In this document: positions 2,095-64,000 of the stretch, piece by piece | How positions within the stretch are numbered: position 1 is the stretch's first letter | How the letters are laid out: each line of letters starts with the position of its first letter | Origin: Parcubacteria group bacterium M6-OD1-1 | GTDB lineage: Bacteria > Patescibacteriota > Minisyncoccia > GWC2-36-17 > M10-OD1-4 | DNA: 64,000 nt | Assembly (NCBI GenBank): GCA_003056085.1 | Contig: LSNK01000001.1 | Coordinates: 152,729-216,728, forward strand | Reading direction: 5' to 3' | The notes under the pieces: generated by a model | Told to the model about the DNA's origin: nothing | The model's input: the letters and a program-made list of their open reading frames with translations, nothing else | Databases searched by the model: none | Translations under genes and position numbers: made by a program

Positions 2095-3678
2095 CTATAA
2101 TCTACCATGTGTCTCGAGTATTTTCTCAACCTGTTCTTGTGTAAGCGACAGCCAAGGAGAGTTATCAGGATTGGAAGCTGCGGCAGCTGGACTTTCTCCT
2201 TGATTCCACCATTTTGCTTGAAAAGGCACACCATCAAAAAGTACACGATTGCCAGCATTGTATATTACTGTTCCAGACCAATTCTGGTATGTGCCCACTG
2301 GTAATGTTGGTGGCTGAATTGGTTTTTCGCCTGGCAAAACAGGTCCAATCAATTTCCATGATGTTTCCCATAATTGTAAGACCGGATTATCTGGCAGGTC
2401 ACCTCTTGTCCACCACTTTGCCTCATAGACATTACCGCGCCATACTATTTTTGTTCCTCTCGGATATGCTCCGGTTTCTTTCCAGACTTGATATGGACTT
2501 TTTTTAGGATTATCAACTACTTGATAGTTGATCTCAGAATCTTCTACTGTTAATAATTTAGCATTTTGCATAAGGTCTCCATCAAAACCAGCGCTTAGAC
2601 TCTTTGTAAAAGCAAATTGAGGATATGATACTCCGCTACATGCATCAGAAACAACCTTTACATTAACATAGTTTTCTCCGCACGGAATATCTCTATTAGC
2701 TGACCACATTGACATTCGACCAGCGCCTTGATTATATGCAAATAGATTAAGCATCTTAGCATCCTCCAATGTAAAGATCTCTTCCAAAAAATCATTTTGA
2801 CCAATCATTGGAGTTGCACCAATTTTTTGCCATAATGAATTACTACTCAAGCTTATTCCTGCTTGTTTATATAAAACTCCCAATTGACGATGGCTCTCAA
2901 TCAATGCTATTTTTGATGCCTCAAACATTGAATCTTCTTGGTCGCGGCTGGCACCATAATCCATAGTCATTACATTAACTCCGGATAAGTCAACTCCACT
3001 CGATAACATCTGAGTTATAACATCCGTACCTTCCTTCGTCATACCTTGCGGAGACACTGGTAACGTCAGCCAGATAGATAGATCTTCTTCGTTATCTCGA
3101 TAGTACTTTTGTAGCTGTGCAATGACATCCGCACGGCGCTTAGACGCATCAATGTCTACTAATCCCTGATTTTCAAGATCTAAATCTATCGTATTGATAT
3201 TATAATGTTCTATAACAGACTTGTAAGCATCAAATAATTCTTTTTCATCGGTACATTTAAGAGCAAGTTCAGAATTTAGCGCACCACCAAAAGAAATTGC
3301 TATTCTACCTCCCTGTTGTTGAAGTCTAGCAATTCTACGATCAAGATCGAGAGATACTGCCGCCTCACTCATTGTATAATATCCTCCCCAAGTAGGAATA
3401 CAGGGATCCATTGCATCAGAGACAATGAAAGAAAGAATAACATCAGATTTTGTATTTAATCCTAATTTTTCAAATGCGTAAGTAGGTGTGGATGTTACGT
3501 CTACGTATGCAGCAAACCATGGACCATATTCAGCCCTAGATTTATTCTCCTGCCACCCCTCAAAACTAAGAGACACACCATAAATAAGGCCAATAAAAAT
3601 AACAATAACATACACTAATCTTAGGAGAGAGAGTCGTCTTTTTGGTTCGCTATTTATTTGTGTGCCAGAATTTTTCAT
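2095..3678 (-). CDS. GH18 chitinase-like glycoside hydrolase with two C-terminal CBM5/12 chitin-binding modules and an N-terminal membrane anchor
   Basis: DxDxE catalytic motif (TIDLDLEN) and the MxYD motif (MTMDYG) of GH18. Two AKWW(T/N)(R/Q)G repeats typical of CBM5/12. Hydrophobic N-terminus. GC visibly higher than surrounding genes. Confidence 0.7.
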   Translation of the reverse strand: MKNSGTQINSEPKRRLSLLRLVYVIVIFIGLIYGVSLSFEGWQENKSRAEYGPWFAAYVDVTSTPTYAFEKLGLNTKSDVILSFIVSDAMDPCIPTWGGYYTMSEAAVSLDLDRRIARLQQQGGRIAISFGGALNSELALKCTDEKELFDAYKSVIEHYNINTIDLDLENQGLVDIDASKRRADVIAQLQKYYRDNEEDLSIWLTLPVSPQGMTKEGTDVITQMLSSGVDLSGVNVMTMDYGASRDQEDSMFEASKIALIESHRQLGVLYKQAGISLSSNSLWQKIGATPMIGQNDFLEEIFTLEDAKMLNLFAYNQGAGRMSMWSANRDIPCGENYVNVKVVSDACSGVSYPQFAFTKSLSAGFDGDLMQNAKLLTVEDSEINYQVVDNPKKSPYQVWKETGAYPRGTKIVWRGNVYEAKWWTRGDLPDNPVLQLWETSWKLIGPVLPGEKPIQPPTLPVGTYQNWSGTVIYNAGNRVLFDGVPFQAKWWNQGESPAAAASNPDNSPWLSLTQEQVEKILETHGRL

Positions 3679-3684
3679 ATTGTA

Positions 3685-5913
3685 TTAGCTATTTCTATTT
3701 ACTAATATTTTTCTCCATTTTAATTTTGGTATAATTTTGATTAATTTATGTAATAACTCTTCCTGAGGAATCTCTACATAAAGCATATCCTTAAAAGCAA
3801 GCCAAATATCAACGATTAAATTTTTAAATCCAATATATGCAACAATTGCCCATAAAGCAGCAAAAGCATTAAATCCAGCAAATGCTGCATTACCCCAATT
3901 TTCACCTTCAATGTTCCGCCACAATGTGAAAATTGAAAAGCTAACAATAAGTATTGGTGCTATTAAATACGGCCATGCCGTAGCTGTTCTATTTTTAATC
4001 TTAGGGGTTCTGGCAAATGGTATTTTTTTGGTTGTTATTGCTTGCTGTAAAGACTTAAGCGTTCCTGCAATATTTACTGGAAGCAATATCAGATTAAAAC
4101 CATAAATACGCATGATGTCACTATATTTATAACGACAGTATTTTAAATCCATAGACATGGCTAAAAAATAAGGTGCCGCAGCAAGTAGTACAAGCGGACT
4201 TAATAATCGTCCATCGTATGGATATGCTAAAAGAAATATCAAACCAATATTTGACCATGCTATTGATGACATATAATTGGCTCTAATCAAAAATTCAAGC
4301 TTCGACAATGGTCTGCCTTCGTGTTTTAGTTTATTAAATAATTTCAATAATTTTGGAAAAATTAGCAATCCCCCATTTGCCCAGCGCTGACGCTGCACAA
4401 CTAAAGATCCGAAATCAGATGGTGTTGCACTATAACTCAAACGCTCTGGATAGTTAACTAATCTCCAGTCATGAAGTGCTAAATCAATGCTTGATTCGGT
4501 GTCTTCTATAACCGTATGATCTTGCACATATCTTTTTATTTCAAACCCACCAATCCATTCTTTTTCAACAATATCCTCAAGAGCATTTTTTCGTATGACA
4601 GCATTAGCTCCAACCCAAAAAGCCGCATTGTAATAACTCATTCCCTGATGAATAATGTGTTGGATATCAGTCGTGGCACCAGACAATCTCTCAAGGCGAG
4701 ATGGAGCCCCTCTAAATGAAGAATACGGTGTTTGTACAACAGCAACATCAGCATTGTTAGGCTGTTGTAAAAAATAGACCAAACGCAAGCAATATTCTCG
4801 TAGTAATATAGAATCAGCATCTAATGTAAGTATAAAATCACTATCCCTAACGATTAGGTCAGTACTCTTTTTATCTTTAGTCGGCATTAAAATAGTCCCT
4901 TCAAGCGACTGTTCTTTTCTATATGTACCTCCCATGAGTCCGATATATGAATTGAGATTCATTGCCTTGTTTAATTCATGAGACAAAGAAATATACCTTT
5001 TTCGTTCAAATAGTTCTATCTTTACACCAAATATCCATACAAGCCTATTATATAGTTGTTCTATACGAGTCTTAGAAAATTGAGTACCTTGCTTTTGCGA
5101 GACTATCAGTTCTTCCCCTGTTTTTTGTAGGTCTTTGGCTAGTTCACGTAAAATTTGATCTGCAAAAAACACATCAACGTGATCATCAATGACCTCTTTC
5201 TCTGCTAAGCTTTCCAGCCACTGGGCTGCCCACATATACTGCTCAGATACTTTTAAAACAGCATTTCCTACAGATTTTCTATCTTTAAAATTACTCCCTT
5301 TAAACTGGGTCAGTATTTTATTAAAACGTTTATATGGTTCAGCTAAAAGAGCTTCTATCTCACTGCTTAATGCATGCGTCTCTTCGATTCTATCTCTATC
5401 TTCTGGACGAACCTTAAAAGGATCGTCATCGAGCAACAGGACTACACGAATATCCGGATATTCTTGAAGCGCTGCGGATAGTAATGTTTTTCGAATAACC
5501 TGAACTTCTTCACTATATGAGGGAACTAAAACAGTTATTGATGGTTGGTGGGTATAAAAATGTTCATCAAGTAAACGTTGAGGAGTACGAATATGCTTTT
5601 TAAAACGTTGTAAGGCGCCTTGTCGTGCAATCAAATACACTAATGCAGATAGGGTTAAAAAAGATACAATAACAGAATAGCCAAAAACTTCCACCGTAAA
5701 TTGATAATTTTGGGGACCATCAATAAGTTGGCGAATAATCACCGAAGTGATATACATCAACCAAAATAGTATTGTTAGTACAATTGCTATCCTACTAAAA
5801 GCTATTGCAAAATCCGAGGGCTTTTCATGAAGGATAGATAACACAGGCATCTCTTTTTCAGAACCCCATTGTCTTTTATAAAAATCCTGCTTGTTACGAT
5901 ATTTTTTATTCAC
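3685..5913 (-). CDS. processive family-2 glycosyltransferase (cellulose/chitin/PNAG-synthase-like)
   Basis: DAD (LTLDADS) and QRQRW (Q-x-x-R-W) motifs. Multiple N- and C-terminal hydrophobic segments. Only 6 bp from the GH18 gene. Confidence 0.7.
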   Translation of the reverse strand: MNKKYRNKQDFYKRQWGSEKEMPVLSILHEKPSDFAIAFSRIAIVLTILFWLMYITSVIIRQLIDGPQNYQFTVEVFGYSVIVSFLTLSALVYLIARQGALQRFKKHIRTPQRLLDEHFYTHQPSITVLVPSYSEEVQVIRKTLLSAALQEYPDIRVVLLLDDDPFKVRPEDRDRIEETHALSSEIEALLAEPYKRFNKILTQFKGSNFKDRKSVGNAVLKVSEQYMWAAQWLESLAEKEVIDDHVDVFFADQILRELAKDLQKTGEELIVSQKQGTQFSKTRIEQLYNRLVWIFGVKIELFERKRYISLSHELNKAMNLNSYIGLMGGTYRKEQSLEGTILMPTKDKKSTDLIVRDSDFILTLDADSILLREYCLRLVYFLQQPNNADVAVVQTPYSSFRGAPSRLERLSGATTDIQHIIHQGMSYYNAAFWVGANAVIRKNALEDIVEKEWIGGFEIKRYVQDHTVIEDTESSIDLALHDWRLVNYPERLSYSATPSDFGSLVVQRQRWANGGLLIFPKLLKLFNKLKHEGRPLSKLEFLIRANYMSSIAWSNIGLIFLLAYPYDGRLLSPLVLLAAAPYFLAMSMDLKYCRYKYSDIMRIYGFNLILLPVNIAGTLKSLQQAITTKKIPFARTPKIKNRTATAWPYLIAPILIVSFSIFTLWRNIEGENWGNAAFAGFNAFAALWAIVAYIGFKNLIVDIWLAFKDMLYVEIPQEELLHKLIKIIPKLKWRKILVNRNS

Positions 5914-6180: not shown

Positions 6181-6262
6181 AAAGGTGTCAGAAGAAAAAG
6201 GTGTCAGGTACCTTTTATTTTATTAAATAAAATACAAGTAAAAAGGTGTCAGGTACCTTTTT
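6180..6262. repeat. three tandem copies or half-copies of the AAAAGGTGTCAGGTACCTTTT repeat
   Basis: aaaaggtgtcag, then aaaaaggtgtcaggtacctttt, then aaaaggtgtcaggtacctttttt. The 3' flank (attttattaaataa-aatac) is also conserved with copy 1. Confidence 0.7.
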
Positions 6263-6280
6263 TCCCTCTTTCTATGCCCC

Positions 6281-7501: not shown

Positions 7502-7912
7502 CGCAGTACTCCTTTTATGCCAAGTTCGCTTTGACTATTGCGGTCTGTCTCGATATGAGATAAACATTATATATACCAGTGATTTGATATACAGAATGCT
7601 TATCTCATACAAGTTTTGAACCTTTTTATTACTGTAAAAGAACTATAAACACAGTATAACACTTTATATTATATATGTCAATAGTTCGCTATTTTCTGTT
7701 CCATATGAGCATTTATGTTGAGATTTGCTTTAATGGGCTAAAACAAGCATTTCTTCAAGGTTTTGAATTGAACTCTTGATATAATCTCTCTGTGAAACAA
7801 GTTCTGAAAGCCAAGCAGAGGGGCTACCAATTTGAGCGTAGTTATTATGCACAAGGTACGTTGTAGACAACTCACTATATAAAAAATCAATCATCTGCGG
7901 TAAGATTAAAAC

Positions 7913-8326
7913 ATGAAACCAATATATCTACAATTTAACTGCAAGGAATCTAATGAGCTGGACATGCGTCAAGCTGATGCAATTTTAAAGTATAAGCCTG
8001 ATATCATAATTCTTGAGTATCCGAACAACAACAAAACTCCTAACCTGCCTCTTAATAAATATTCCGCTTTAAAAAAGCCAAAAAACTTAGTAAAAAAACG
8101 CCTCAAAAAGTTTTCTGATAAAGTTTTAAAAATTCATCCCTGGGCTGAAGCAGACACTATAATGTGGAAGAATGTTGCGAGCCTTTGGGAAAAAGATCAT
8201 CAAGTTTTAATATATTCAGTAGATGCCCCAAACGAGCTGACAGAAGAACTGCGAGAAGTATGGAACTATACATATCCATGTATTAAAAAAAAATTGGATA
8301 TGGTGGGTAAGAATATACTTGCGTGA
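7913..8326 (+). CDS. hypothetical protein
   Basis: ORF only. Abuts the next ORF by an 8-bp overlap. Confidence 0.35.
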   Translation: MKPIYLQFNCKESNELDMRQADAILKYKPDIIILEYPNNNKTPNLPLNKYSALKKPKNLVKKRLKKFSDKVLKIHPWAEADTIMWKNVASLWEKDHQVLIYSVDAPNELTEELREVWNYTYPCIKKKLDMVGKNILA

Positions 8327-8579
8327 GAAGATTATGGCAAAAAACATTCAATGGATATTAGACAACTACAAAGAAAAGAAAGAGCCTAAAGTTTTAGTAT
8401 TTTTACAAAGCTTTCATTGGGATCATGTAAAATTTTTACTAAACAATCCATCTAAAAATAAGATATGGAACTACTATTTCGGAAATTTTTCTGAAATAGA
8501 CAAACAAAGCATCGGAAACAAAATAAAAAATATAAACAAGGTATTTTATAAATATTGGAGTAAAATATCTGATTTTTAA
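8319..8579 (+). CDS. hypothetical protein (probable true start at ATG 8334)
   Basis: ORF only, with overlap and possible coupling to the previous ORF. Confidence 0.3.
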   Translation: MREKIMAKNIQWILDNYKEKKEPKVLVFLQSFHWDHVKFLLNNPSKNKIWNYYFGNFSEIDKQSIGNKIKNINKVFYKYWSKISDF

Positions 8580-8687
8580 TATACAGTAAACTTTTTGGAT
8601 TCAGCTTAAGGATGAATCCTCCACCAAACGCTCCAAATACACCATTTGGAGCGTTTGGTGCATTATAAGAGAGAAAGGTGGAGAAAT

Positions 8688-8766
8688 GTGTCAGGTACCT
8701 TTTATTTTATTAGAGTAAGAAAAGATATCATGAAAAAGGTAGCAGGTATCTTTTTTCCTAAGAATT
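8688..8766. repeat. two degenerate copies of the AAAAGGTGTCAGGTACCTTTT repeat
   Basis: gtgtcaggtaccttttatttt at 8688-8708 and aaaaaggtagcaggtatctttttt at 8743-8766. Confidence 0.55.
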
Positions 8767-8831
8767 TAATAAATAGCCAGCTCATTTCGTAGTGAAAATA
8801 ATAGAGCAAAACCAAAGAAATCCTTTCCTTT

Positions 8832-9878
8832 TTAATTAAAATAATTATTTACAGCGTCTTCAAATTGCTCGATAAATATTTTTTTAAAATAAAAAATATT
8901 ATTTATCTCATAGAATAATAAGCTTGCCTTTTTGTATTCCCCAACATCTACAATCCTATAAGAAAATGGTATTGAATTATGTGCTAATAAAATAGCATTT
9001 GAAAGCATACGAGCTGTTCTTTTATTTCCATCCTCAAAAGCCTGAATATATGAAATTAAAATTAACCCAAGAAAAGCTTTTTCAAAAAATAATTCTTTTT
9101 TATTTATTAGGTCAATCATTCTTTCTAAGACTTCCTTAAGTTGAAATAAATTATCCAATGGCTTATATTTTGTAGCAGTAATACCCACCGCATTATTCCT
9201 AATATTTTTTGTAATATTAAGTTTTTTGGTTAAAACAGAATGAATATATTCAATATCAGAATAATTTAATTTTTTAAATCTCTCTTTGTTTAAAATAGAC
9301 TCATTAAAAGCATCTTTATGATTAAGAATCATTTGAGTCTCTTTTTCCGTTTTTCCTTTCCCAACAATATTTTCCTTAATCAAAGCTTCCGTACTTAAAA
9401 GTGAGTAAGTATTTCCCTCTATGACTGAAGATTTCCAAGAAAATTCAATCATTATTCTTTCAAATTCTTTATTTATAAGAGTTTGACTATCATATTCAGA
9501 AAAATTTTTTATAAACTCCCTTTGTAATTTTTCAATTTTTGCCTTTTCTTCTTTAGTGAAAATATCACCTTCCAAAATATTAAAAATTTCAAAATTAAAA
9601 CTTTTTTTTACTTCTCTTTCTGTGTATGGAATAGAAAAATATTTTTTAGCATCAATTTTATTTATAATTTCATAATTTTCAGACAAAGAGTAGATTACGC
9701 CTCTTCCTAATCCTTTTTTAAAAATTAAAAACTTTTCTTCTAGTTCTTTTAAATCTCTTTGTAGTGTTTTTCTATCAATATCCACACTCAAAAAAGACAG
9801 AATATCAGACACCGATACTTCTGTCCTTTTCTTTATAAAAGTAATAATTTTATCTTGTCTTTTTTGCTTTTTATTCAT
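8832..9878 (-). CDS. Fic/DOC-family protein with N-terminal winged-helix domain and a degenerate Fic motif (QAFEDGNKRTAR)
   Basis: The core motif aligns to HPFx(D/E)GNGRxxR. His is replaced by Gln and the second Gly by Lys. Basic N-terminal HTH-like region. Confidence 0.6.
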   Translation of the reverse strand: MNKKQKRQDKIITFIKKRTEVSVSDILSFLSVDIDRKTLQRDLKELEEKFLIFKKGLGRGVIYSLSENYEIINKIDAKKYFSIPYTEREVKKSFNFEIFNILEGDIFTKEEKAKIEKLQREFIKNFSEYDSQTLINKEFERIMIEFSWKSSVIEGNTYSLLSTEALIKENIVGKGKTEKETQMILNHKDAFNESILNKERFKKLNYSDIEYIHSVLTKKLNITKNIRNNAVGITATKYKPLDNLFQLKEVLERMIDLINKKELFFEKAFLGLILISYIQAFEDGNKRTARMLSNAILLAHNSIPFSYRIVDVGEYKKASLLFYEINNIFYFKKIFIEQFEDAVNNYFN

Positions 9879-9896
9879 ATATAAACAATATAATTA

Positions 9897-10002
9897 ATTG
9901 CGACATTTTACAATACTAATTGCGACACCTTTAAAGTATTTATTCATAAAATCGTTATTTATAGCAGTTTTATTGCGACATTTTATAATACTAATTGCGA
10001 CA
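9897..10002. promoter_or_regulatory. four direct copies of ATTGCGACA (two 30-bp units) upstream of the Fic gene, a candidate operator
   Basis: Copies at 9897-9905, 9919-9927, 9972-9980 and 9994-10002, with spacing 22/53/22 bp. They begin immediately upstream of the start codon at 9878. Confidence 0.4.
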
Positions 10003-10034
10003 TATTATAACTCCCCTTGAGAATACCTTTTCCA

Positions 10035-10070
10035 AAAAAGGTGTCAGAAAAGGTGTCAGGTACCTTTTTT
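10035..10070. repeat. half-site plus full copy of the AAAAGGTGTCAGGTACCTTTT repeat
   Basis: aaaaaaggtgtcag followed by aaaaggtgtcaggtacctttttt. Confidence 0.65.
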
Positions 10071-11427: not shown

Positions 11428-12348
11428 TTAACTTTCTAAAACATTAAATCCATTAAATATGGCATCACACATAAAATCTTCCAATAAACTGGAATCTCCA
11501 CTTTGTTGAGACTTATTTAAATAATTATAATAAAATCTTTTATTTTCTTGCTTAATAACTGCTGGCGGTAAATTTCTTCTCAAAAACATCGCTACCACAA
11601 TAAGACGCCCAATTCTTCCGTTGCCATCAGAAAAAGGATGAATTTTCTCAAAATCACTATGTATTTGAGAAATATGTTTTACTACATCATCTTCTTCTTT
11701 ATTTATATTTTTTATTAGCCTTACTACTAACTCTGGGACTTTCAAATAATTAGCAGTAGGAATATTGGCTCCGACAATTCTCACCCCATGATTTCTATAA
11801 AAACCCGCATCATCTCTAATGCTATTCATTAAAATGCTATGTAATTTTAAAATTAATAATTCTGTAATTTTAAAATTTGGCTTAATCTGTTTAAATAAAA
11901 ACTGTAAAGCTGTTTGATGATTTTTAGCCTCTAATTGTTCAATTAAATTTCTGTTTTTCAAAGATATGTTCCGAAATAAAATATCTGCAGTTTCATTTTC
12001 AGTTAAAGTACTGCCTTCTATGCTGTTTGTATTGTAAGTTAAAGATAAAATAAACTGATCATAAATATCTTTACGACTGATGATTTCTTTTAATATGTTT
12101 GTGTATTTTTTTGATTTATTGTAAATAACATCTTTTTTTGCTTGTAAAATATTATCTGGAATAATTTTTTGCCCTGTGTATTTTTTATACAATTCATCAA
12201 TCAACTCCCGCCTTCTTTTGTGAGGAACTGATTTGTTATTGATCCAGCTATTTAAAGTTGCAAAAGACACCTCCAGCTCATAAGCAATTTTTTCTTGAGT
12301 TAAGCCTGAAATTTGTTTAATTAATTTTAGTTTCTCTGATGTATTCAT
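11428..12348 (-). CDS. Fic-family protein (AMPylase-type) with N-terminal XRE-like HTH
   Basis: Canonical HPFSDGNGRIGR motif. N-terminal LTQEKIAYELEVSFATLNSWINNK helix-turn-helix. Confidence 0.8.
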   Translation of the reverse strand: MNTSEKLKLIKQISGLTQEKIAYELEVSFATLNSWINNKSVPHKRRRELIDELYKKYTGQKIIPDNILQAKKDVIYNKSKKYTNILKEIISRKDIYDQFILSLTYNTNSIEGSTLTENETADILFRNISLKNRNLIEQLEAKNHQTALQFLFKQIKPNFKITELLILKLHSILMNSIRDDAGFYRNHGVRIVGANIPTANYLKVPELVVRLIKNINKEEDDVVKHISQIHSDFEKIHPFSDGNGRIGRLIVVAMFLRRNLPPAVIKQENKRFYYNYLNKSQQSGDSSLLEDFMCDAIFNGFNVLES

Positions 12349-12421
12349 AATATCAGTATATTATAGAACTTTATAAAGTTTGTCAAATTTAATAAACTTT
12401 ATAAAGTTTTAATTTAATACT

Positions 12422-12566
12422 CTCTAAGCAAAACAAAAAATCTTTCAATTTCTTGAAAGATTTTTTGTTTTATTGTTTTTCTGTCTTAAACAAATGTTAA
12501 AGCATTTCCTTTGCTGTCTCCTCTGCCTGTTCTGCCTATTCTGTGGACATAGTCGTTGTATGACTG
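12422..12566. repeat. 145-bp direct repeat, copy A: orphan 27-codon 3' end of the DEAD-box helicase gene plus terminator hairpin
   Basis: Identical to 18305-18449. Contains the hairpin aaaaaatctttcaa-tttc-ttgaaagatttttt and an out-of-context coding tail ...YNDYVHRIGRTGRGDSKGNALTFV* on the minus strand. Confidence 0.85.
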
Positions 12567-12614
12567 CGTTTTGAGTTACTTTAAATAGTTGATATTTCAT
12601 GCAAATATTATAAA

Positions 12615-13112
12615 TTACTTTACAACAAACTTCTCAGATGCAATGTTAATAGAATAAGTTTTTTCCTCTTCAATTCTCTTAATTATTTTTGGAATATCTG
12701 GATCCCAAAATAAATCTTCCATGCTTTGTATTTTTTCGAGAGTAAACCAATCATATTCAAGATCTTCTGAATTTTCTATTAATCGTCCCGTTAGCTCCGA
12801 AATAAAGATTATCTTTACGGCATGCAAAACAATATCATTTTTATACTTTATTAATGGAAAAACACCTGCAAGTTCTTTTATTTTTACCTCAAGACCAGTT
12901 TCTTCTTCTGTCTCCCTCTTTGCTCCAATTATAATATCCTCTTCCATCTCAAGCCACCCTGAAGGAATGCTCCATTTTCCATTTTGATGAATTAGTAAGT
13001 ATTTATCATCTTTTACAACAACAGAGCCGACAATAATAAATGGCTGTGTGACACAGCGTTTGTTTCCTTGTTCTGTTTTAGTAACTATTTGTGGTTTATC
13101 TTTAGAATCCAT
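12615..13112 (-). CDS. NUDIX hydrolase
   Basis: Nudix box GWLEMEEDIIIGAKRETEEETGL matches GX5EX7REUXEEXGU. Confidence 0.8.
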   Translation of the reverse strand: MDSKDKPQIVTKTEQGNKRCVTQPFIIVGSVVVKDDKYLLIHQNGKWSIPSGWLEMEEDIIIGAKRETEEETGLEVKIKELAGVFPLIKYKNDIVLHAVKIIFISELTGRLIENSEDLEYDWFTLEKIQSMEDLFWDPDIPKIIKRIEEEKTYSINIASEKFVVK

Positions 13113-13114
13113 TT

Positions 13115-14056
13115 TTATTTTTTATTTAATATTATATTATAATATTTTTTTTCGGTATCATTGAATATTGTTTTCATCTCTTCTATGCAAGATTCTCCAT
13201 TTAACGCACTCAGAGGTAATATCAATATATTCTCATCTATAGTATTATAACACGGTTCAAATACACTTAAAAATATATTTAATTCATATAAACGTGTTGT
13301 TATCTTTTTTAAACACTTTTCATCACTTTCATTATTATGACTACCATACCTATCTATCCTTGATTTACATTTTAATAATGTTTGATGTAGTGCATAATAT
13401 GTATTATTAAAATTATCTTCTAAGTAACAGAAATCTTTACCATAGAGAACTATATTTCTATAGTAAGCAACAGAAATCTCATGCTTCGTCGCATCTTCAT
13501 GAACTACACCAGCATAAACGGTATCATTTACAGGAAAGTTTAAACTCATGTTATCTTCTCCATATACAAAATAATTAATATATTTTGCTTCGATATTTAG
13601 ATTACTTCTTAACTCTTCAGACACCAATACATTATCTAATGAATATGAAAATTCACTACCTTTAATAACAATTCCCAGATCTATATCGTCAGGAGCATAA
13701 TCCCTATATCCATAAACATAACTGCCGTATACGTAAATGGATATTATGTCCTCAATATTAAAATTAGGACATTTACTCATAACACTCTCAATAACAGAAT
13801 TTATATTTTCTTTTAATTTTAAAATTCTTCCAATTATCAATTTATTTTGATTGCTATCAAATACCCGATAATACGGATTTCTATTTTTCAAATTATCTAT
13901 AATATCTTTTTCTGAATCAAGACAGATATTTTCATTAGAAAAAATAAATAAGGGGTATTCATATTGATACCCCTTATTTAATTTATTATTATTTTCCTTT
14001 CTTATCTCTTTGATGATCTTCTCTGCGTAATTACGAGAGGACAATAAACTCCACAT
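13115..14056 (-). CDS. nucleotidyltransferase (Pol-beta superfamily minimal NTase fold)
   Basis: YGSYVYGYRDYAPDDIDLGIV matches the hG[GS]-x9-13-D-h-[DE]-h NTase signature. 2-bp gap to the NUDIX gene and 55-bp overlap with the upstream gene. Confidence 0.55.
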   Translation of the reverse strand: MWSLLSSRNYAEKIIKEIRKENNNKLNKGYQYEYPLFIFSNENICLDSEKDIIDNLKNRNPYYRVFDSNQNKLIIGRILKLKENINSVIESVMSKCPNFNIEDIISIYVYGSYVYGYRDYAPDDIDLGIVIKGSEFSYSLDNVLVSEELRSNLNIEAKYINYFVYGEDNMSLNFPVNDTVYAGVVHEDATKHEISVAYYRNIVLYGKDFCYLEDNFNNTYYALHQTLLKCKSRIDRYGSHNNESDEKCLKKITTRLYELNIFLSVFEPCYNTIDENILILPLSALNGESCIEEMKTIFNDTEKKYYNIILNKK

Positions 14057-15108
14057 TTATCACACCCTCTTGAAAGCGCCTCTGGATCACAACTTTTTAT
14101 CAACGATCTTTTTTGCAGGACATCCCTATCTTCTTCCATCAAATCAGGAATACGAGCCATATCTCCAGAATGAACAGCTATTTTTGCAGACATTATACCC
14201 CTTTCAGAATCATCAAGCGTAGGAAATCCCTTATGCTCATTAGCTGGAATAGTTGTAATTTTGCCAACATTAAATCTAGCCGCCTCTGCCGCACCTATAG
14301 CAGATGCTATATAATCATACGAACCGCATACATCGGTTACAACTGGTCCAAGTAATTGAAACGGCACATAATCCCCATGAGTCTCCCTGATGCTACCAAT
14401 CATTTCGGCTATCATATGAAATGGATAATGACTCATCACCTCAACTATAGATAAAACTCCATTTTCTTTCAGAAAAGAATACATCTCCATCTGTTTTCCA
14501 ACCTCCCACAAATGAGATCTATCGTTAGCTTCAACTATCCCCGCAGCTCTAAAAGTAGAACCTATGTGAATAGTAGTATTATACTCCTTAGCCAAGTCAA
14601 TAATATCATCTAAAATAGGATAATAAGGATTATCTACTTTATGCTTTCTCATCGTTACAGCTAAGAGACCTCCTTGTCTTCCTGTTATAGGGATCAAACG
14701 ACCACTTGAATAGGTCTCGAGTTCTTCTCTAGTTCTTGGAGTAAAATTGATCGTCATATGGTCACCCCCTCCAAGAATAAAGCACTCAATTTCTTCAAGT
14801 AAAACGTCAGGATAAACTTTTGTTTTGTTTTCTATAAAAGGTAAATAGATGGGATTCATACCAACACCAATGTGTGGGTATTTCTCTTTAACATACCTCC
14901 AGAGTGGTTGTTTGAGCCTGATTGTACTAAGGTCGGTTATTGTATGAACTCCAAGCTTAGCAGCAAGATCTATTTTTTTCATCTCTTGATGCACCGAATC
15001 TTCATCTACTTTATTAGTCCCCACAATGAAATTTATCTTTGTAGTAGCTCCCTCTCCTACTTCCAAATTAACATCACCAAGCTTATTGCCAACAATTATC
15101 TTATTCAC
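14002..15108 (-). CDS. short ThiC-family protein (phosphomethylpyrimidine-synthase-like, radical-SAM-type)
   Basis: LLGPVVTDVCGSYDYIASAIGAAEAA matches the ThiC LGPLxTD...GYDHIxSAIGAA block. A C-terminal CDKCGVYC resembles the ThiC CxxCxxxxC cluster motif. Other ThiC-like blocks are recognisable. Only 368 aa. Confidence 0.6.
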   Translation of the reverse strand: MNKIIVGNKLGDVNLEVGEGATTKINFIVGTNKVDEDSVHQEMKKIDLAAKLGVHTITDLSTIRLKQPLWRYVKEKYPHIGVGMNPIYLPFIENKTKVYPDVLLEEIECFILGGGDHMTINFTPRTREELETYSSGRLIPITGRQGGLLAVTMRKHKVDNPYYPILDDIIDLAKEYNTTIHIGSTFRAAGIVEANDRSHLWEVGKQMEMYSFLKENGVLSIVEVMSHYPFHMIAEMIGSIRETHGDYVPFQLLGPVVTDVCGSYDYIASAIGAAEAARFNVGKITTIPANEHKGFPTLDDSERGIMSAKIAVHSGDMARIPDLMEEDRDVLQKRSLIKSCDPEALSRGCDKCGVYCPLVITQRRSSKR

Positions 15109-15123
15109 TATATTGTCTCCTAT

Positions 15124-15813
15124 TTAAAAGATGTTCTTATCAGAAAATACATCTATAATCCTATTGTGTACAGTTTCGATATCATCATTTCCATCTATAC
15201 GCATAAGATCATACTTATTGGTCAAGCGCTCAAATTCATACCTGTATTGCTTCAAAAATGTAATACTAGAAGTATCATACCCACGCATCGCAACTCGCTC
15301 ATCTGCGATTTTAGGATCAGTGTCCAACCAAAAATTTAATTTTGGAGGATCAAGATAGAGAAGGATATTTTTTACATGCTCATAAGTTTCATCGGAGCAT
15401 CCATTAGCCATAGCTCCAGCAAGCCAATCAAAAACGGATCTTGAAGAAACAATCGTAAATCCCGAGTTTACAACGGAATCAATCTTCTCCATTTTATTCC
15501 TTAGCACCTCAAAGCTTATTGCCACCATGTACGCATCTATGCCAAGCAACGCATGCCCAGACTTGATGCCCATGCTCTTACCTATTATGTAACTCATTTC
15601 AGAAACAAAGTATCTTGTCTCCTCATATCTTGCTACAGCAATACCCTTTTCCCTTCTTAGCCACCCACATAATAAATTCATTTGGGTGGTTTTACCAGCG
15701 CCATCAATACCAGAAAAACCTATATGTACACCATTATCACATTTCATGATAAGTCTCCTATATACCTGATTATTAAATTGGAAAAAAGCAATCTTACACA
15801 CAAGGAATACCAT
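15124..15813 (-). CDS. thymidylate-kinase-like P-loop nucleotide kinase (probable true start at the internal Met, about 15747)
   Basis: IGFSGIDGAGKTT matches the Tmk P-loop and LDTDPKIADERVAMRG matches the Tmk lid region. The first 22 codons look like a spurious N-terminal extension. Confidence 0.6.
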   Translation of the reverse strand: MVFLVCKIAFFQFNNQVYRRLIMKCDNGVHIGFSGIDGAGKTTQMNLLCGWLRREKGIAVARYEETRYFVSEMSYIIGKSMGIKSGHALLGIDAYMVAISFEVLRNKMEKIDSVVNSGFTIVSSRSVFDWLAGAMANGCSDETYEHVKNILLYLDPPKLNFWLDTDPKIADERVAMRGYDTSSITFLKQYRYEFERLTNKYDLMRIDGNDDIETVHNRIIDVFSDKNIF

Positions 15814-15846
15814 GTTATAAGCTTCATGTCAATCAAATTTCTTAAA

Positions 15847-16133
15847 TTAACACCTGAAATGCACACTATTAAAAACTTGATGCGGTGTTAAATAGTTAAG
15901 ACGTTTACGAGGTCTGTTATTTAACTTTCTAACAGCTCTTTTTACATCTTTATCCGTAATTGTAGCAAAAGAAGATCTTTTAGGAAAATATTGTCTTAAT
16001 AAGCCATTAACATTTTCATTAGCGCCTCTTTGTTGAGGTTTGCCTTTGTCTGCAAAATACACTAAAGCTCCCGTTTCTTGTTCTATAAATTTATGTTCTG
16101 CAAACTCACTTCCATTGTCGTAAGTTATTGTAA
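15847..16133 (-). mobile_element. IS30-family transposase remnant (C-terminal ~95 aa, frameshifted upstream)
   Basis: Translation ITYDNGSEFAEHKF...QRGANENVNGLLRQYFPK...LNNRPRKRLNYLTPHQVF matches the IS30 DDE C-terminal signature. The upstream portion is out of frame. Confidence 0.75.
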
Positions 16134-16390
16134 GGCAACTGCCTTGTGGACAAATTCCAAAAAACCTCTTGTGTATTCTTTCATCAGTCTATTTCTCTTC
16201 TGTTGGTTAAATATTACATAGTGTTAACTCCAAGATAACTATACTTATATTTCACAACAAATCAACAATCTCCGCTGATCCATCCACCCATTTCCTTGTC
16301 TTATAAAGTATTTGATGCTATAAATCATATTGGTTTTAGAGGATGTTCTTTATATAAAAAATAAACAACTTAAACAAGGGGTATATCACT

Positions 16391-17851
16391 ATGTCAACAT
16401 CAGATATTTTTGAAATGGAAGACCTTATTTTTACAAACTCTACAGAACAAATCGTAACTGGAGGAAGAGATAAATTCCCTTTATTGTCTAAAGCATTCAA
16501 AGATATAAAGCAAATAGGCATTATCGGCTGGGGCTCTCAAGGTCCGGCGCAATCTCAAGACTTACGAGACTCACTGAAAAATACTGGGGTCAAAGTAAAG
16601 ATTGGACTTAGGGAAAACAGCTCATCTATGACAAAAGCCAGAAAAGCCGGCTTCACTGAAGAAAACGGCACTCTTGGTGAAATGTATGATGTTGTCGCTG
16701 AGTCAGATATGGTAATCTTGCTTATAGCAGATTCTGGTCAGGTTGCTGAGTACAAAAAGATATTCACAACAATGAAAAAAGGTGCTACTCTCGGTCTGTC
16801 TCATGGTTTTCTATTGGGACACTTGAAGAACGTTGGAGAGTATTTTCCAGACGATATAAACGTTGTAGGTGTTTGCCCTAAAGGTATGGGACCTTCTGTT
16901 CGTAGACTTTACGAGCAAGGTTCAGGTATCAACGATAGCTTTGCAGTGGAGTGTGACATAGATAGTCGCGCTACAGATATTGCTCTTGGCTGGGCAGTTG
17001 CACTGGGTGCTCCATGTATCTTTGAGACAACCCTGGAGATGGAGTATCGCAGTGATATCTTCGGCGAACGTGGTATCTTGCTCGGCGCCGTGCATGGAAT
17101 AGTTGAAGCACTCTATTATATTTTCTGCTTAAAAGGAGCGAGTAAAAAAGCTGCTTACAGACTGTCAGTAAAAAATATAACAGGTCCAATAAGCCATACT
17201 ATTTCTAAAAATGGAATAATTGGTGTTTACAACAGCCTCAATAGTGGCACCGATAAAGTAATCTTCCATGAAATGTACAAAGCTGCTTACACTCCTTCAT
17301 TGGCACTTCTCAGTGAAATATACGATGAAGTAGAAAATGGGAATGAAATAAGAAGTGTCATAATGGCGGGGAGAAGAAATAATGAATTCCCTATGGGCAA
17401 TATCGACAAAAGCGAGATGTGGGATACAGTAGGTAAAACAGTAAGAGAAACAAGAGGCGACAAAGAGATGCCAATATACCCCATGACTGCTGGTTTGTAT
17501 TGCGCTGTTATGATGGCGCAGATAGACTTATTAACAAAGAGAGGTCATTGTGTGAGTGAAATATGCAATGAATCAGTTATTGAAGCTGTTGATTCGCTCA
17601 ATCCTTATATGCATCATGCAGGGATTGCTCACATGATAGACAACTGTTCGACCACGGCGCGCCTTGGTGCGAGAAAATGGGGACCTCGCTTCTTTGCACT
17701 TATAATGCAAGAAATTAAACCTTCTTTTTCTAGTAGATTAATCGCGGATAATGACTTGATCGATGCCTTTGTGAATCATCCAATTCATAACGATCTCAAA
17801 GTATGCAGTGAACGCAGACCACCCATTGATATATCTCTCAACATTGATTAG
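16391..17851 (+). CDS. ilvC: ketol-acid reductoisomerase, long class-II form
   Basis: GWGSQG Rossmann motif plus LGLSHGF, VCPKGMG and FGERGILLG blocks. 486 aa with the duplicated C-terminal domain typical of class II. Confidence 0.8.
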   Translation: MSTSDIFEMEDLIFTNSTEQIVTGGRDKFPLLSKAFKDIKQIGIIGWGSQGPAQSQDLRDSLKNTGVKVKIGLRENSSSMTKARKAGFTEENGTLGEMYDVVAESDMVILLIADSGQVAEYKKIFTTMKKGATLGLSHGFLLGHLKNVGEYFPDDINVVGVCPKGMGPSVRRLYEQGSGINDSFAVECDIDSRATDIALGWAVALGAPCIFETTLEMEYRSDIFGERGILLGAVHGIVEALYYIFCLKGASKKAAYRLSVKNITGPISHTISKNGIIGVYNSLNSGTDKVIFHEMYKAAYTPSLALLSEIYDEVENGNEIRSVIMAGRRNNEFPMGNIDKSEMWDTVGKTVRETRGDKEMPIYPMTAGLYCAVMMAQIDLLTKRGHCVSEICNESVIEAVDSLNPYMHHAGIAHMIDNCSTTARLGARKWGPRFFALIMQEIKPSFSSRLIADNDLIDAFVNHPIHNDLKVCSERRPPIDISLNID

Positions 17852-17880
17852 TTGTTTTTTATTGTCTATTTAGTCCACAA

Positions 17881-17910
17881 GGACCTCTTTACAAAGAGGC
17901 CCTTTTTTAT
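17881..17910 (+). terminator. rho-independent terminator after ilvC
   Basis: ggacctcttt-aca-aagaggcc followed by TTTTTT. Confidence 0.55.
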
Positions 17911-18304
17911 TTCTTTAAAAATTTACAACATCTAATCCTACGATAAGAGACTGACCAATATTATACATCCTATGATAAAATACAGATATGGAAAGAAGAT
18001 GTTTCTATATATAATATTATTGGAATTGTATTAATTATTTTTGACATTTTCTTATTAAAAATAAAGTGAATATAAAACATGCCTATTTGTTTAAAAGTAA
18101 TAAGATTGAATAAAAATATTAAAAAAAAATTTCTGCTATTTATTACATGATACATACCTATTAATATCTATTCTAAGAACTATTCCTATATAAATATAAC
18201 ACAAAAGAGATCAGAAGCTTTTTCGTCATCTTTTTCATTCTTTTCCTTCTTTCTGACAACTTTTCTTCCATTTTTTTCTTTTAAAAAATATCATTTAACA
18301 CCCC

Positions 18305-18449
18305 CTCTAAGCAAAACAAAAAATCTTTCAATTTCTTGAAAGATTTTTTGTTTTATTGTTTTTCTGTCTTAAACAAATGTTAAAGCATTTCCTTTGCTGT
18401 CTCCTCTGCCTGTTCTGCCTATTCTGTGGACATAGTCGTTGTATGACTG
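18305..18449. repeat. 145-bp direct repeat, copy B: native 3' end of the helicase gene plus terminator
   Basis: Identical to 12422-12566. Confidence 0.85.
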
Positions 18450-19622
18450 AGGTATTGTGTAGTTTATAACATGAGTGATGTCTTTAATATCAAGACCTCT
18501 TGCCGCTACGTCTGTTGCAACTAAAATATTTATTCTGCTTTGTCTGAAGTGCGTTAAAGACCTCTGTCTTTGATGCTGTCTTTTGTCTCCATGAATAGAA
18601 TCAACCTTAAATCCATTTCCTCTTAAGTTGACTGTCAGTTCTTCTACATCTTTTTTAGTTTCTGAAAAGACGAGAACTTTTTTAAACTCAGGGTCAGAAA
18701 GAATACCTTTTAATGTATCTATTTTTGAAGCGTTTTTAACTCTTACAATATCTTGGTCAACATTGTCTGCTGTTTTGCCGACTTGAACAGACACCGTAAC
18801 GGGATTACGCAAAAATTGGTCTGTTATTCTTTTAATTTGATCCGGCATTGTAGCAGAAAAGAAAAGCGTCTGTCTTTTTGAATCAGTTTTGCTTAAAATT
18901 TCTCTTATGTCATCTATAAATCCCATATCTAACATCCTGTCTATTTCATCCACCACTACATTATTAAAAGATCTCAAATTAAGAGCGCCTCTTTTTTCAA
19001 GGTCTTTTAATCTCCCTGGTGTGCCTATTATGAAATTTGGATTTCTTTTTAAATCTCTTAACTGTTTGTGTATCGGCATACCTCCTATACATGTTGTTGA
19101 GTAAAGATTCATACCGTAAGCAAAAAGCTTGAACTCGGTTTCTATTTGGGAACAAAGCTCGCGCGTTGGAGCGATAATCAAAACTTTTTCCGTGCGGCTG
19201 CCGGCTACTTTATTTATCTGAGGCAATAAAAATGCTCCTGTCTTGCCTGTTCCTGTGTTTGCAAGCCCAACAACATCTTTCCCTTCAAGTATATACGGGA
19301 TGGATTGGTCTTGTATGGGAGTTGGTTTAACAAATTTTCTTCTTTTTATATTTTCCTGTATCTTTTCAGAAAAATTAAAATCAGCAAACAAATTATTTAC
19401 TTTTATTTTCTCGCTTTTTACGCCGGAAGCCTTTTTGACAAACTTAGATATGTCTATGTTGTTTGACCTTCTTTTAAACCCTCTTCCTTTGTATCCTCCG
19501 CTTCTTTTACCGGAACGATGCTTTGAAAAGCTGCCGTACGATTTTGAGTTTGTTGATGACCTGTTTTTATTACCACCAAATCTATTACCAGACCTCTGTC
19601 TGGATTTATTATTATTATTCAT
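18369..19622 (-). CDS. DEAD-box ATP-dependent RNA helicase
   Basis: Q-motif region, GTGKT Walker A, DEID (DEAD variant), SAT and HRIGRTGR motifs. Arg/Gly-rich N-terminus. Confidence 0.85.
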   Translation of the reverse strand: MNNNNKSRQRSGNRFGGNKNRSSTNSKSYGSFSKHRSGKRSGGYKGRGFKRRSNNIDISKFVKKASGVKSEKIKVNNLFADFNFSEKIQENIKRRKFVKPTPIQDQSIPYILEGKDVVGLANTGTGKTGAFLLPQINKVAGSRTEKVLIIAPTRELCSQIETEFKLFAYGMNLYSTTCIGGMPIHKQLRDLKRNPNFIIGTPGRLKDLEKRGALNLRSFNNVVVDEIDRMLDMGFIDDIREILSKTDSKRQTLFFSATMPDQIKRITDQFLRNPVTVSVQVGKTADNVDQDIVRVKNASKIDTLKGILSDPEFKKVLVFSETKKDVEELTVNLRGNGFKVDSIHGDKRQHQRQRSLTHFRQSRINILVATDVAARGLDIKDITHVINYTIPQSYNDYVHRIGRTGRGDSKGNALTFV

Positions 19623-43452: not shown

Positions 43453-43457
43453 ATGTG

Positions 43458-43541
43458 TGCCGGGGAGAGGACTTGAACCTCCACAGGGTTACCCCTAATA
43501 GCTTCTAAGGCTACCGCGTCTACCAATTCCGCCACCCCGGC
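43458..43541 (-). tRNA. tRNA-Leu (anticodon UAG), CCA not encoded
   Basis: Reverse complement reads GCCGGGG-UG-GCGGAAUUGGUAGACGCG-GUAGC-CUUAGAA-GCUAU-long variable arm-GGAGGUUCAAGUCCUCU-CCCCGGC-A. Cloverleaf with anticodon UAG and a type-II long variable arm. Confidence 0.85.
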
Positions 43542-47362: not shown

Positions 47363-47374
47363 ATTAAAAAAATC

Positions 47375-49162: not shown

Positions 49163-49347
49163 ATTTTTTATATTTAATAAAATTTTTAATTTATAATTAG
49201 TAATTTCACTTCATATCTTTGATTTATTAAAACTAAATAAATTGAGTAAAGTTTGAGGAAAAAACGAGGAGCGGAATAAGTCGTACTAATGATACGACAT
49301 TGAGCACAGAAGTTTTTAACGAAGAAATTTGCTCGATTTATTTAGTT

Positions 49348-57447: not shown

Positions 57448-57629
57448 GTCTGCTCCTTGTAGCTCGGCATCCCGAGCGGTTGTTTTTTAAAGTCACATCC
57501 CAGCTGACAACTTAATCCATCAGCTTCAAAGACACATTAACATCTTTAGAAAAACTTGTCAATAGCCTGTGGATATGTTATATTATTTTAGTGTTCATTT
57601 AAATGTATTTATCCGGAGCAAATATCAAG

Positions 57630-58062: not shown

Positions 58063-58238
58063 TTTGCTCCGAATAAATATATTTAAAATACAAGTTAAAA
58101 ATTCTCAAAAAATTAATTTTAAACATCAAAAAAACCGCTTTTCTAAGCGGTTTTTTTGGTGTTTTTTGGGGTCGGGGATGTAATAAGGTTAGAACCTGTT
58201 TTGTGGGAAAAGTATCTATACCACAATAGAGACTCACA

Positions 58239-63871: not shown

Positions 63872-64000
63872 CTTCTTTTCGAAGTCATCCTGTTCCTTTC
63901 AGAGACAGACCACGGTAGCAGTACTGGTCAGGAGACCATTATTACTACCGTGGATTTACCGCCATGCCTTTAAAAATAAAGGTTTAGGTGATTAAATTGT
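63840..64000. other. GC-rich non-coding patch truncated by the window end (possible structured RNA)
   Basis: Hairpin ccacggtag...ctaccgtgg and other GC-rich stems. No ORF. Incomplete. Confidence 0.15.

Follow-up and report, generated by a model that had tools for sequence, protein, structure and literature searches.

Among known radical rearrangements, that catalysed by ThiC is one of the most complex. To our knowledge, and in the literature searched, ThiC and BzaF/BzaA-BzaB are the sole characterised enzymes of the ThiC superfamily, to which that literature assigns two reactions, both on aminoimidazole ribotide (AIR), leading to hydroxymethylpyrimidine phosphate (HMP-P) and hydroxybenzimidazole (HBI), respectively. 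Between BzaF and ThiC just three AIR contacts differ, and AIR is still the substrate (PMC12661338). Outside this superfamily, the genes of viperin, a radical S-adenosylmethionine (SAM) enzyme, are linked genetically to kinases of the nucleoside monophosphate (NMP) kinase superfamily (bioRxiv 10.1101/2023.09.13.557418), and in phages, gene clusters are known in which a Tmk-like kinase accompanies a dCTP pyrophosphatase and an enzyme that modifies NMPs (PMC13326640). Here, we describe a four-gene cassette encoding a Tmk-family kinase, a short ThiC-like protein, a nucleotidyltransferase (NTase) of the Pol-beta type and a Nudix hydrolase, which is located in a 64,000-nucleotide stretch of contig LSNK01000001.1 from Parcubacteria group bacterium M6-OD1-1; this whole stretch is referred to as the window. 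The cassette recurs as a conserved, transferable unit, and its ThiC-like member is predicted to catalyse neither of the two AIR reactions.

The four genes are packed on the minus strand within 12615-15813, in the order kinase (15124-15813, 229 aa as a mechanical open reading frame (ORF)), ThiC-like protein (14002-15108, 368 aa), NTase (13115-14056, 313 aa) and Nudix hydrolase (12615-13112, 165 aa). Kinase and ThiC-like genes are separated by 15 bp, ThiC-like and NTase genes overlap by 55 bp, and NTase and Nudix genes are separated by 2 bp, which reproduces exactly the coordinates and junctions of a first-pass annotation of the window. Its view that the genes form a single transcript agrees with an operon-like unit, as evident from the tight packing and from a gene order that recurs elsewhere, and its four family assignments (Tmk-like, ThiC, NTase and NUDIX) all held in profile searches.

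A search of 5.8 billion protein clusters revealed the short ThiC-like family (approximately 360-380 aa) to comprise 45 clusters that are 47-89% identical to the window protein. Contigs were fetched for these clusters, and all of their ORFs were searched with profiles made from the window proteins. Kinase, ThiC-like and NTase genes were found in the same order at about 12 independent loci from metagenomes or metagenome-assembled genomes (MAGs), usually together with the Nudix gene, and this recurrence of gene order is far above chance. A comparison of the four-gene neighbourhood across genomes had been suggested in the first-pass annotation, and co-occurrence was its outcome. The cassette clade (window, L001, L008, L009, L010, L011, L018, L019, L020, L021, L036, L037, L041 and L042) is at least approximately 52% identical to the window ThiC-like protein, and its source names include Candidatus Shapirobacteria, 'bacterium' and a Planctomycetota MAG. 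Wherever enough sequence was present, the ThiC-like gene was directly preceded by the kinase gene and directly followed by the NTase gene, which often overlaps it; the exception is L019, with a split ThiC-like gene and a kinase gene positioned after the Nudix gene. A Nudix gene comes next in about 10 of 11 loci, in either orientation, but is missing in the Shapirobacteria locus L001. Kinase, ThiC-like protein and NTase are thus strictly co-inherited, with the Nudix hydrolase nearly always accompanying them. Between loci, the kinase and NTase orthologues are 33-43% identical, with invariant catalytic motifs.

The closest relative is a prophage-borne copy (L008), the proteins of which are 79-89% identical to those of the window. 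At the DNA level, homology between the two comprises 12584-15832 on the minus strand (83% over 3250 bp), and no homology was detected by blastn beyond these positions. The dN/dS values of the four genes were 0.10, 0.07, 0.18 and 0.10, at dS values of 0.6-1.0, reflecting strong purifying selection. Since homology is confined to the four genes and dN/dS is low, the cassette is a discrete, selected and transferable unit. Flanking Fic genes, a KARI-like gene and a remnant of an IS30-family insertion sequence (IS) were considered as parts of the system and rejected, because none of them recurs beside the cassette elsewhere and DNA homology ends at the four genes.

The ThiC-like protein (14002-15108, minus strand) is a short radical-SAM-type enzyme of the ThiC family. 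It belongs to the ThiC superfamily by its match to PF01964 (ThiC_Rad_SAM), which scored 194.6 bits against a Pfam gathering threshold of 25, with the core aligned over query positions 15-336 of 368. The scores against the ThiC equivalogs NF009895, TIGR00190 and NF006763 were 194.4, 169.3 and 141.6 bits at cut-offs of 410, 460 and 650, respectively, and the score against the BzaB equivalog TIGR04386 was 136.4 bits at a cut-off of 700, so that all four were missed. The protein did not cluster with bona fide ThiC: between the short ThiC-like family and canonical ThiC the score falls abruptly from 337 to 135 bits, and in a neighbour-joining tree the family is set on a long branch. In comparison with ThiC, the protein is approximately 60-250 aa shorter and does not have the N-terminal segment.

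To map residues, we aligned the family with the ThiC structures known from Arabidopsis and Caulobacter, and with two canonical ThiCs obtained in the cluster search; residue roles were taken from PMC4389238 (Fenwick et al. 2015), PMC11117688 and PMC12661338, and the ThiC residues Asn228, Asp383 and Tyr449 are numbered according to the Arabidopsis enzyme and Cys474 according to the Caulobacter enzyme (Cc). The metal/SAM site was found to be retained and invariant, with H227 and H292 forming the second-metal His/His pair that chelates SAM (His426/His490 in ThiC) and E291 being the Glu that contacts the SAM ribose (Glu489). E223, the Glu in contact with the 2'-OH of the substrate ribose (Glu422), is likewise retained and invariant. 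The phosphate anchor (Arg386 and Ser342/Arg343 in ThiC; PMC4389238) is retained as the invariant residues R144 and R187 and an S/G-R-Q-G loop, to which Y88 is added in the cassette clade. As in ThiC and the Bza enzymes, a three-Cys Fe-S motif is located at the C-terminus. The first-pass annotation had read CDKCGVYC as a ThiC block; this stands insofar as the three Fe-S cysteines are present and invariant (C349, C352 and C356), whereas their spacing is CX2CX3C (CX2CX7C in a few members) instead of the canonical CX2CX4C, and a fourth invariant cysteine (C340) is located 8 residues upstream of the motif. The linker to the cluster motif is approximately 19 aa shorter than in canonical ThiC.

The residues that recognise or process the aminoimidazole of AIR are all replaced, indicating a rebuilt base pocket. 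Asn228, which contacts the 3'-OH, corresponds to Ile28; Asp383, the acid at the imidazole N3, to Ser/Ala184; Tyr449, which stacks on the AIR amino group, to Gln251; Cys474 (Cc), the H-atom relay, to Thr285; and His322 to Asn121. Ile28, Ser/Ala184, Gln251 and Thr285 are invariant or almost so across the family. In ThiC, the mutations D383A and C474S abolish HMP-P formation (PMC11117688). The comparison with BzaF points in the same direction, its AIR site being nearly identical to that of ThiC, whereas the short ThiC-like family has lost the AIR contacts and has no cobamide genes nearby.

No thiamine pyrophosphate (TPP) riboswitch was found across the window at the gathering threshold, and none in 12300-16450 even at E<=1. 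Genes for thiamine (ThiD, ThiE), cobamide or purine pathways were absent among the approximately 40 window ORFs scanned, as had been noted for thiamine genes in the first-pass annotation, and thiamine or cobamide genes were partners in none of approximately 40 related loci, where purine genes were likewise not seen. Based on the sub-cut-off scores, the replaced AIR residues and the absence of a TPP riboswitch and thiamine genes, we conclude from the alignments that the ThiC-like protein is neither an HMP-P synthase nor an HBI synthase. An atypical short ThiC homologue for which a plain thiamine role is less obvious had already been proposed, and the lost AIR residues, missed equivalogs and absent riboswitch bear this out. 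Several homologues carry the database name 'phosphomethylpyrimidine synthase ThiC'; for the same reasons, namely lost AIR residues, low equivalog scores and neither TPP riboswitch nor thiamine genes, these labels are very probably wrong. A third function of the ThiC family, or ThiC-like proteins in defence, were not described in the literature searched.

For the kinase (PF02223, E 4e-14), the start is most likely the ATG at 15747, giving a protein of 207 aa (15124-15747, minus strand), because a Shine-Dalgarno sequence AGGAG is located 7 nt upstream, the orthologues start there and gene callers give 207 aa. Broad family membership is supported by a PF02223 (Thymidylate_kin) score of 53 bits at a gathering threshold of 27, by similarity to thymidylate kinases of the PDB (E 7e-15) and by a match to phrog_761 (thymidylate kinase); the score against the dTMP kinase equivalog TIGR00041 was 57 bits, below the cut-off of 83.25. 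The protein has a P-loop (GIDGAGKTTQ), its DR(Y/H) motif is changed to S-R-S/T, and the Arg that reads the thymine O4 (equivalent to Arg78 of PfTMPK) is not conserved in the cassette kinases. Since S-R-S/T stands in place of DR(Y/H) and the thymine-reading Arg is lost, the phosphate acceptor of the cassette kinase is expected to be other than dTMP.

The NTase (13115-14056, minus strand), the start of which overlaps the ThiC-like gene by 55 nt, gave weak Polbeta/NTP_transf_2 matches when the window protein was searched alone (E 2e-3), whereas four of five orthologues matched, with a best E of 7.8e-6. The signature that the first-pass annotation had recognised was confirmed, as G111-S112-x11-D124-I-D126 is invariant in the orthologues and E167 provides the third carboxylate. 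The hG[GS]x9-13Dh[DE]h signature, the third carboxylate and a modelled alpha-beta NTase fold place the protein in the Pol-beta superfamily. The earlier description as a 'minimal' NTase had to be abandoned, with the 313-aa protein comprising three parts, namely an N-terminal domain of approximately 100 aa, the NTase core and a C-terminal helical bundle. In the structural model, the fold is closest to antibiotic O-nucleotidyltransferases, and the catalytic signature is intact, as in an active enzyme. The enzymes of this kind, ANT(3'')(9)/AAD(9), ANT(4') and LinB, also consist of a Pol-beta NTase and a helical C-terminal domain. Unlike these and the MNT/HEPN proteins, the cassette NTase has no detectable similarity to solved structures, its family profile matching no PDB sequence at E<=10, and carries the additional N-terminal domain; at the sequence level, it does not belong to the ANT(3'')/ANT(9)/ANT(4')/Lnu families. 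A fused MNT-HEPN toxin-antitoxin was considered and rejected, because the C-terminal domain does not have the conserved Rx4-6H motif of HEPN RNases. The match to PADLOC was marginal (PDC-S09, E 5e-3).

Word-indexed searches yielded 2 and then 5 clusters of NTase homologues, and an exhaustive hidden Markov model search of 1.84 billion representatives yielded 98 representative clusters, revealing a small, fast-evolving family. An NTase-like domain was also observed inside giant multidomain proteins (P0070-P0141), such as P0073 with 7465 aa and P0095 with 5166 aa. In P0082 (2204 aa), it is joined to SF1 helicase, GNAT and bacterial sugar transferase domains, and other multidomain proteins contain PEMT, SAM-methyltransferase or PCMT domains. 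The NTase-like domain itself matched no Pfam family in the multidomain proteins scanned.

The Nudix hydrolase (12615-13112, minus strand) is a member of its superfamily, with a PF00293 score of 55.1 bits at a threshold of 21.1 (E 1e-14) and a complete Nudix box GX5EX7REUXEEXGU (GWLEMEEDIIIGAKRETEEETGL). Its nearest PDB entries are the ADP-ribose pyrophosphatase 3o8s (E 3e-10) and MutT-like proteins; it matched PDC-S07 of PADLOC, a single-gene candidate (E 9e-8), and phrog_1198 (E 9e-18), and reached no equivalog cut-off of NCBIfam.

Upstream of the kinase gene, alignment with the corresponding regions of relatives revealed a conserved leader and promoter region (15748-15832, minus strand), which contains TTGACA at 15832-15827, the conserved block AAGATTGCTTTTTTCCAATT and the Shine-Dalgarno sequence AGGAG at 15759-15755. 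The DNA homology to the prophage copy begins exactly at 15832, the first base of the leader TTGACA. The leader matched no Rfam family. A scan for terminator-like structures identified a hairpin at 13945-13980 (minus strand) with a 14-15-bp stem, a GGGG/CCCC core and a subsequent T-run. It is located 22 nt past the stop codon of the ThiC-like gene, within the 5' coding part of the NTase gene, and its palindrome is kept in the prophage copy (second blastn match). A simple operon terminator was rejected, given the position in conserved NTase coding sequence; the hairpin may serve in attenuation or processing of the transcript at the boundary of the first and the second gene pair.

Regarding mobility, a perfect direct repeat of approximately 148 nt (reported as 162 nt, 95%) was found at 12422-12583 and 18305-18466. 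The second copy belongs to a DEAD-box helicase gene with helicase domains (18369-19622, minus strand), of which it forms the authentic 3' end and terminator, and the first copy, which abuts the Nudix end of the cassette, is an orphan duplicate consisting of the terminator and approximately the last 33 codons of that gene. The repeats bracket a 5.7-kb island (12584-18304) comprising the cassette, the IS30 remnant and the KARI-like gene, an arrangement that indicates the footprint of an element integrated in an att-like manner at the 3' end of a gene. The IS30 remnant is the C-terminal part of a transposase (15847-16062, minus strand; NF033563, E 3e-19, model positions 215-267 of 267); it is truncated and non-functional and is located immediately upstream of the cassette. 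The repeat-bracketed, IS-adjacent position noted in the first-pass annotation is thereby substantiated, as is its description as mobile accessory cargo, through the homology-delimited unit, the prophage copy and the island footprint.

In the prophage L008, genes for a serine integrase and an S24 repressor are located on either side of the cassette, which also has a caspase-like protein gene as neighbour, and ParB-methyltransferase, TerS and TerL (phrog_38, E 3e-76) are encoded downstream. In L041, it adjoins a type I restriction-modification (R-M) system, Abi_C and AbiEii. The neighbours in L001 are HicAB, a tyrosine integrase and LexA/ImuB-type genes, and those in L009 are small toxin-antitoxin-like genes. 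Hence, the unit moves as a block, being found in a prophage, in an att-like island and next to the R-M and abortive-infection genes of L041, and its context leans towards conflict systems. Between cassette and S24 repressor, L008 encodes the caspase-like Peptidase_C14 and two small ORFs (7819-9139, minus strand); the peptidase gene may likewise have an accessory or defence function, as a second occupant of this 'moron' slot.

The retained radical machinery, the rebuilt substrate pocket and the shared operon with kinase, NTase and Nudix genes lead us to predict new chemistry. Our tentative proposal, which we hold at somewhat less than even confidence, is that the cassette makes a modified nucleotide with a conflict-type role, by analogy with the systems introduced above. 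The ThiC-like protein could quite possibly, if not probably, be a third functional type of ThiC-superfamily radical-SAM enzyme. It would generate a 5'-deoxyadenosyl radical that attacks the sugar moiety of a ribosyl compound which bears a 5'-phosphate and is not AIR, with an ordinary NMP as best guess; rearrangement or dehydration would then give an NMP analogue. The dedicated Tmk-family kinase would convert this analogue to the diphosphate and the cellular nucleoside diphosphate kinase to the triphosphate; because the ThiC pocket holds a single phosphate, the kinase would be an obligate partner. The Nudix hydrolase may either feed the pathway by converting a nucleoside triphosphate (NTP) to the NMP, as does the dCTPase in phage hypermodification, or cap the level of a toxic product. 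The ANT-like NTase is envisaged to attach a nucleotidyl group, which may be the modified one, to an acceptor hydroxyl. The role would be anti-phage or anti-competitor action via the nucleotide analogue. A more far-reaching version, in which the ThiC-like protein represents a third catalytic class working on ordinary nucleotides and the cassette is an independent nucleotide-analogue immunity, viperin-like in function but built on another radical-SAM scaffold, is considered somewhat unlikely. In that version, prophages and islands of ultra-small bacteria of the candidate phyla radiation (CPR) type would carry the cassette, and its product would be a new natural nucleotide with antiviral or antimetabolite action.

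A pairing of the radical-SAM enzyme with a kinase as in viperins had been pointed out in the first-pass annotation and is a genuine parallel: like viperin (pVip/RSAD2) with its CMPK2-like kinase, the ThiC-like protein is linked to a kinase of the NMP-kinase superfamily, occurs in defence-type or mobile contexts and would be expected to give a nucleotide analogue. This linkage was found at every locus with enough upstream sequence, versus 12% of bacterial viperins. Apart from the radical-SAM/kinase linkage, the cassette is not a pVip system. Viperin has a canonical CX3CX2C partial TIM-barrel, whereas the fold here is ThiC-type with a C-terminal cluster; viperin uses NTPs, whereas a pocket that anchors one phosphate makes an NMP-level substrate expected; and the kinase is expected to act after the radical step here and before it in viperin. 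The NTase and Nudix hydrolase are further partners, and no PADLOC model matched. By profile matches, the cassette is not a member of the defence systems catalogued in PADLOC-DB 2.0.0, which contains no model for it, and no description of a kinase/ThiC-like/NTase/Nudix cassette was found in the literature searched. The undescribed nucleotide module postulated in the first-pass annotation is therefore supported with respect to operon structure, conservation, mobility and a non-thiamine function, while the modified-nucleotide product and the defence or toxin role are plausible hypotheses.

Several points weigh against this proposal. The substrate is a guess, and the role of the NTase is its weakest link. 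The fourth invariant cysteine near the cluster could imply a fully ligated cluster and non-radical-SAM chemistry. PADLOC-DB 2.0.0 gave no match for either kinase or ThiC-like protein, the ThiC-like gene was found on no IMG/VR viral contig, and the neighbours of the cassette in L010 are purely housekeeping genes. Most directly, the short ThiC-like family includes a sister clade from DPANN archaea that is 47-50% identical to the window protein and constitutes a single group in the neighbour-joining tree, with source names such as Woesearchaeota, Pacearchaeota and Nanoarchaeota. On its contigs (L003-L007, L012-L015, L022-L035, L039 and L040), it never occurs with cassette kinase, NTase or Nudix genes; its neighbours are a ROK kinase gene at 13 loci, a PGM/PMM-type mutase gene at 12 and a gene for DUF362, an Fe-S protein, at 9. 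One locus additionally encodes a GalE/RmlB-like enzyme together with a sugar-1-phosphate nucleotidylyltransferase, and elsewhere GPI, TAL or PFK are encoded nearby. For at least this clade, the context points to sugar-phosphate chemistry. Both clades share the same active-site replacements, except for Tyr286, which is Ile in the sister clade, and differ at a dozen clade-specific positions, including Y88 versus I (phosphate contact), N85 versus V and F122 versus L, with positions 85 and 122 being next to the active site. The ancestral substrate may have been a sugar phosphate or a nucleoside diphosphate (NDP) sugar, and the cassette may or may not have adapted that chemistry to a nucleotide.

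These findings bear on a different assignment, in which the cassette synthesises a nucleotide-activated unusual sugar or small metabolite for envelope or glycan modification. In such a pathway, the kinase would phosphorylate a sugar-like precursor, the ThiC-like protein would rearrange it, the NTase would add an NMP and the Nudix hydrolase would recycle NDP-X. The archaeal gene clusters with their sugar-phosphate enzymes, the replacements common to both clades, the resemblance of the NTase fold to that of enzymes which transfer nucleotidyl groups to the sugar hydroxyls of aminoglycosides and lincosamides, and the cleavage of NDP-X by Nudix enzymes, the nearest solved relative being named ADP-ribose pyrophosphatase, would all fit this assignment. 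We nonetheless regard it as unlikely, because glycosyltransferase, mutase, flippase or other glycan genes were found in none of the approximately 12 cassette loci, the kinase belongs to the NMP-kinase (Tmk) family and not to a sugar-kinase family, the Y88/I, N85/V and F122/L differences by the active site suggest different substrates for the two clades, and the cassette context consists of prophage, defence-type genes and toxin-antitoxin pairs instead of envelope loci. A nucleotide substrate is also implied if the cassette belongs to a phage-type, pre-replicative nucleic-acid hypermodification pathway, by which temperate phages of ultra-small bacteria would evade restriction. Here, the Nudix hydrolase would supply the NMP, the ThiC-like protein would modify it, the kinase would rephosphorylate it for incorporation into DNA or RNA of phage or host, and the NTase would add a further group. 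The sequence of NTP pyrophosphohydrolase, NMP modifier and Tmk-like kinase is that of phage modules with a dCTP/dUTP pyrophosphatase, a dNMP-modifying enzyme and a dNMP or Tmk-like kinase, such as those of the T4 hm-dC pathway and of 5-hydroxycytosine phages, and agrees with published clusters in which the modifier acts on dCMP (PMC13326640); the closest relative of the cassette is located in a prophage with integrase, TerS, TerL and ParB-methyltransferase, and thymidylate-kinase and Nudix families of PHROG were matched. In those phages, however, the modifier is thymidylate-synthase-like instead of ThiC-type and the pyrophosphatase a MazG or dCTPase instead of a Nudix enzyme. The ThiC-like protein and the NTase matched no PHROG family, the ThiC-like gene is absent from IMG/VR contigs, the window and most other loci are chromosomal and have no phage structural or replication genes nearby, and the prophage copy occupies an accessory 'moron' position between integrase and repressor, outside the replication module, all of which makes hypermodification quite improbable. 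It is scarcely credible that the ThiC-like protein is a compact ordinary ThiC or a BzaF-like HBI synthase for thiamine or cobamide salvage. The strong ThiC_Rad_SAM match, the ThiC names in source annotations and the kept metal/SAM site and phosphate anchor agree with this assignment, but the missed equivalog cut-offs (194/169/142/136 versus 410/460/650/700 bits), the replacement of Asp383, Asn228, Tyr449 and Cys474 (Cc), of which the D383A and C474S mutants make no HMP-P (PMC11117688), the lack of a TPP riboswitch and of ThiD, ThiE and purine genes in the window, and partner genes that are never thiamine or cobamide genes argue against it. Overall, a modified nucleotide with a conflict-type role is the reading we prefer, with part of our confidence assigned to none of these readings.

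Further features were observed in the window. Within the island, the KARI-like gene (16391-17851, plus strand; 486 aa) is divergent from the cassette, encodes two KARI_C stretches, scored 221 bits at an ilvC equivalog cut-off of 226, has a GC content (approximately 38%) above that of its surroundings and is absent beside the cassette elsewhere. Beyond the Nudix end, two HTH-Fic genes (8832-9878 and 11428-12348, minus strand; PADLOC PDC-S04/SoFic, E down to 4e-42) flank a gene for a 346-aa protein without family match. Just upstream of the first Fic gene (9894-10024), there are three direct repeats with a unit of approximately 34 nt containing TTAATTGCGACA, which look operator-like. A REP-like palindrome (AAAAGGTGTCAGGTACCTTTT) with a 7-bp stem is present in at least 6 intergenic copies (480-514, 6196-6230, 6241-6275, 8683-8717, 8734-8768 and 10049-10068), often paired at a distance of approximately 45-50 nt. 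At 2095-5913 (minus strand), a GH18 chitinase-like protein with CBM5/12 is encoded directly downstream of a 742-aa GT2 glycosyltransferase (chitin/cellulose-synthase-like). A glycogen-type cluster at 45563-50544 (minus strand) encodes a GDE_C amylo-1,6-glucosidase-like protein, a Glycogen_syn protein (PF05693, E 5e-167) and GH57; PF05693 is the eukaryote/archaeal type, a glycogen synthase family that is unusual in bacteria. The genome is confirmed as bacterial by an RNase P RNA of bacterial class A (57626-58065, plus strand); a LOOT RNA motif was found at 63867-63990 (minus strand; 65 bits at a gathering threshold of 46), and the 64 kb contain one tRNA (Leu, 43457-43541).

All four folds of the cassette are known, and the cassette is a new combination of known parts; what would be new is the enzyme chemistry and its product. 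A compact clade that combines radical machinery with a rebuilt pocket and an operon of nucleotide enzymes predicts both a new radical chemistry and a new small molecule, and the sister clade represents a radical step in the sugar-nucleotide metabolism of archaea that is apparently undescribed. Correcting the label 'phosphomethylpyrimidine synthase' avoids crediting thiamine synthesis to organisms that perhaps do not have it. If an analogue made by the cassette serves in conflict, nucleotide immunity based on radical-SAM enzymes would have arisen two or more times, and the cassette would be a candidate defence system and, from the little-explored CPR/DPANN organisms, a source of a candidate scaffold for antivirals.

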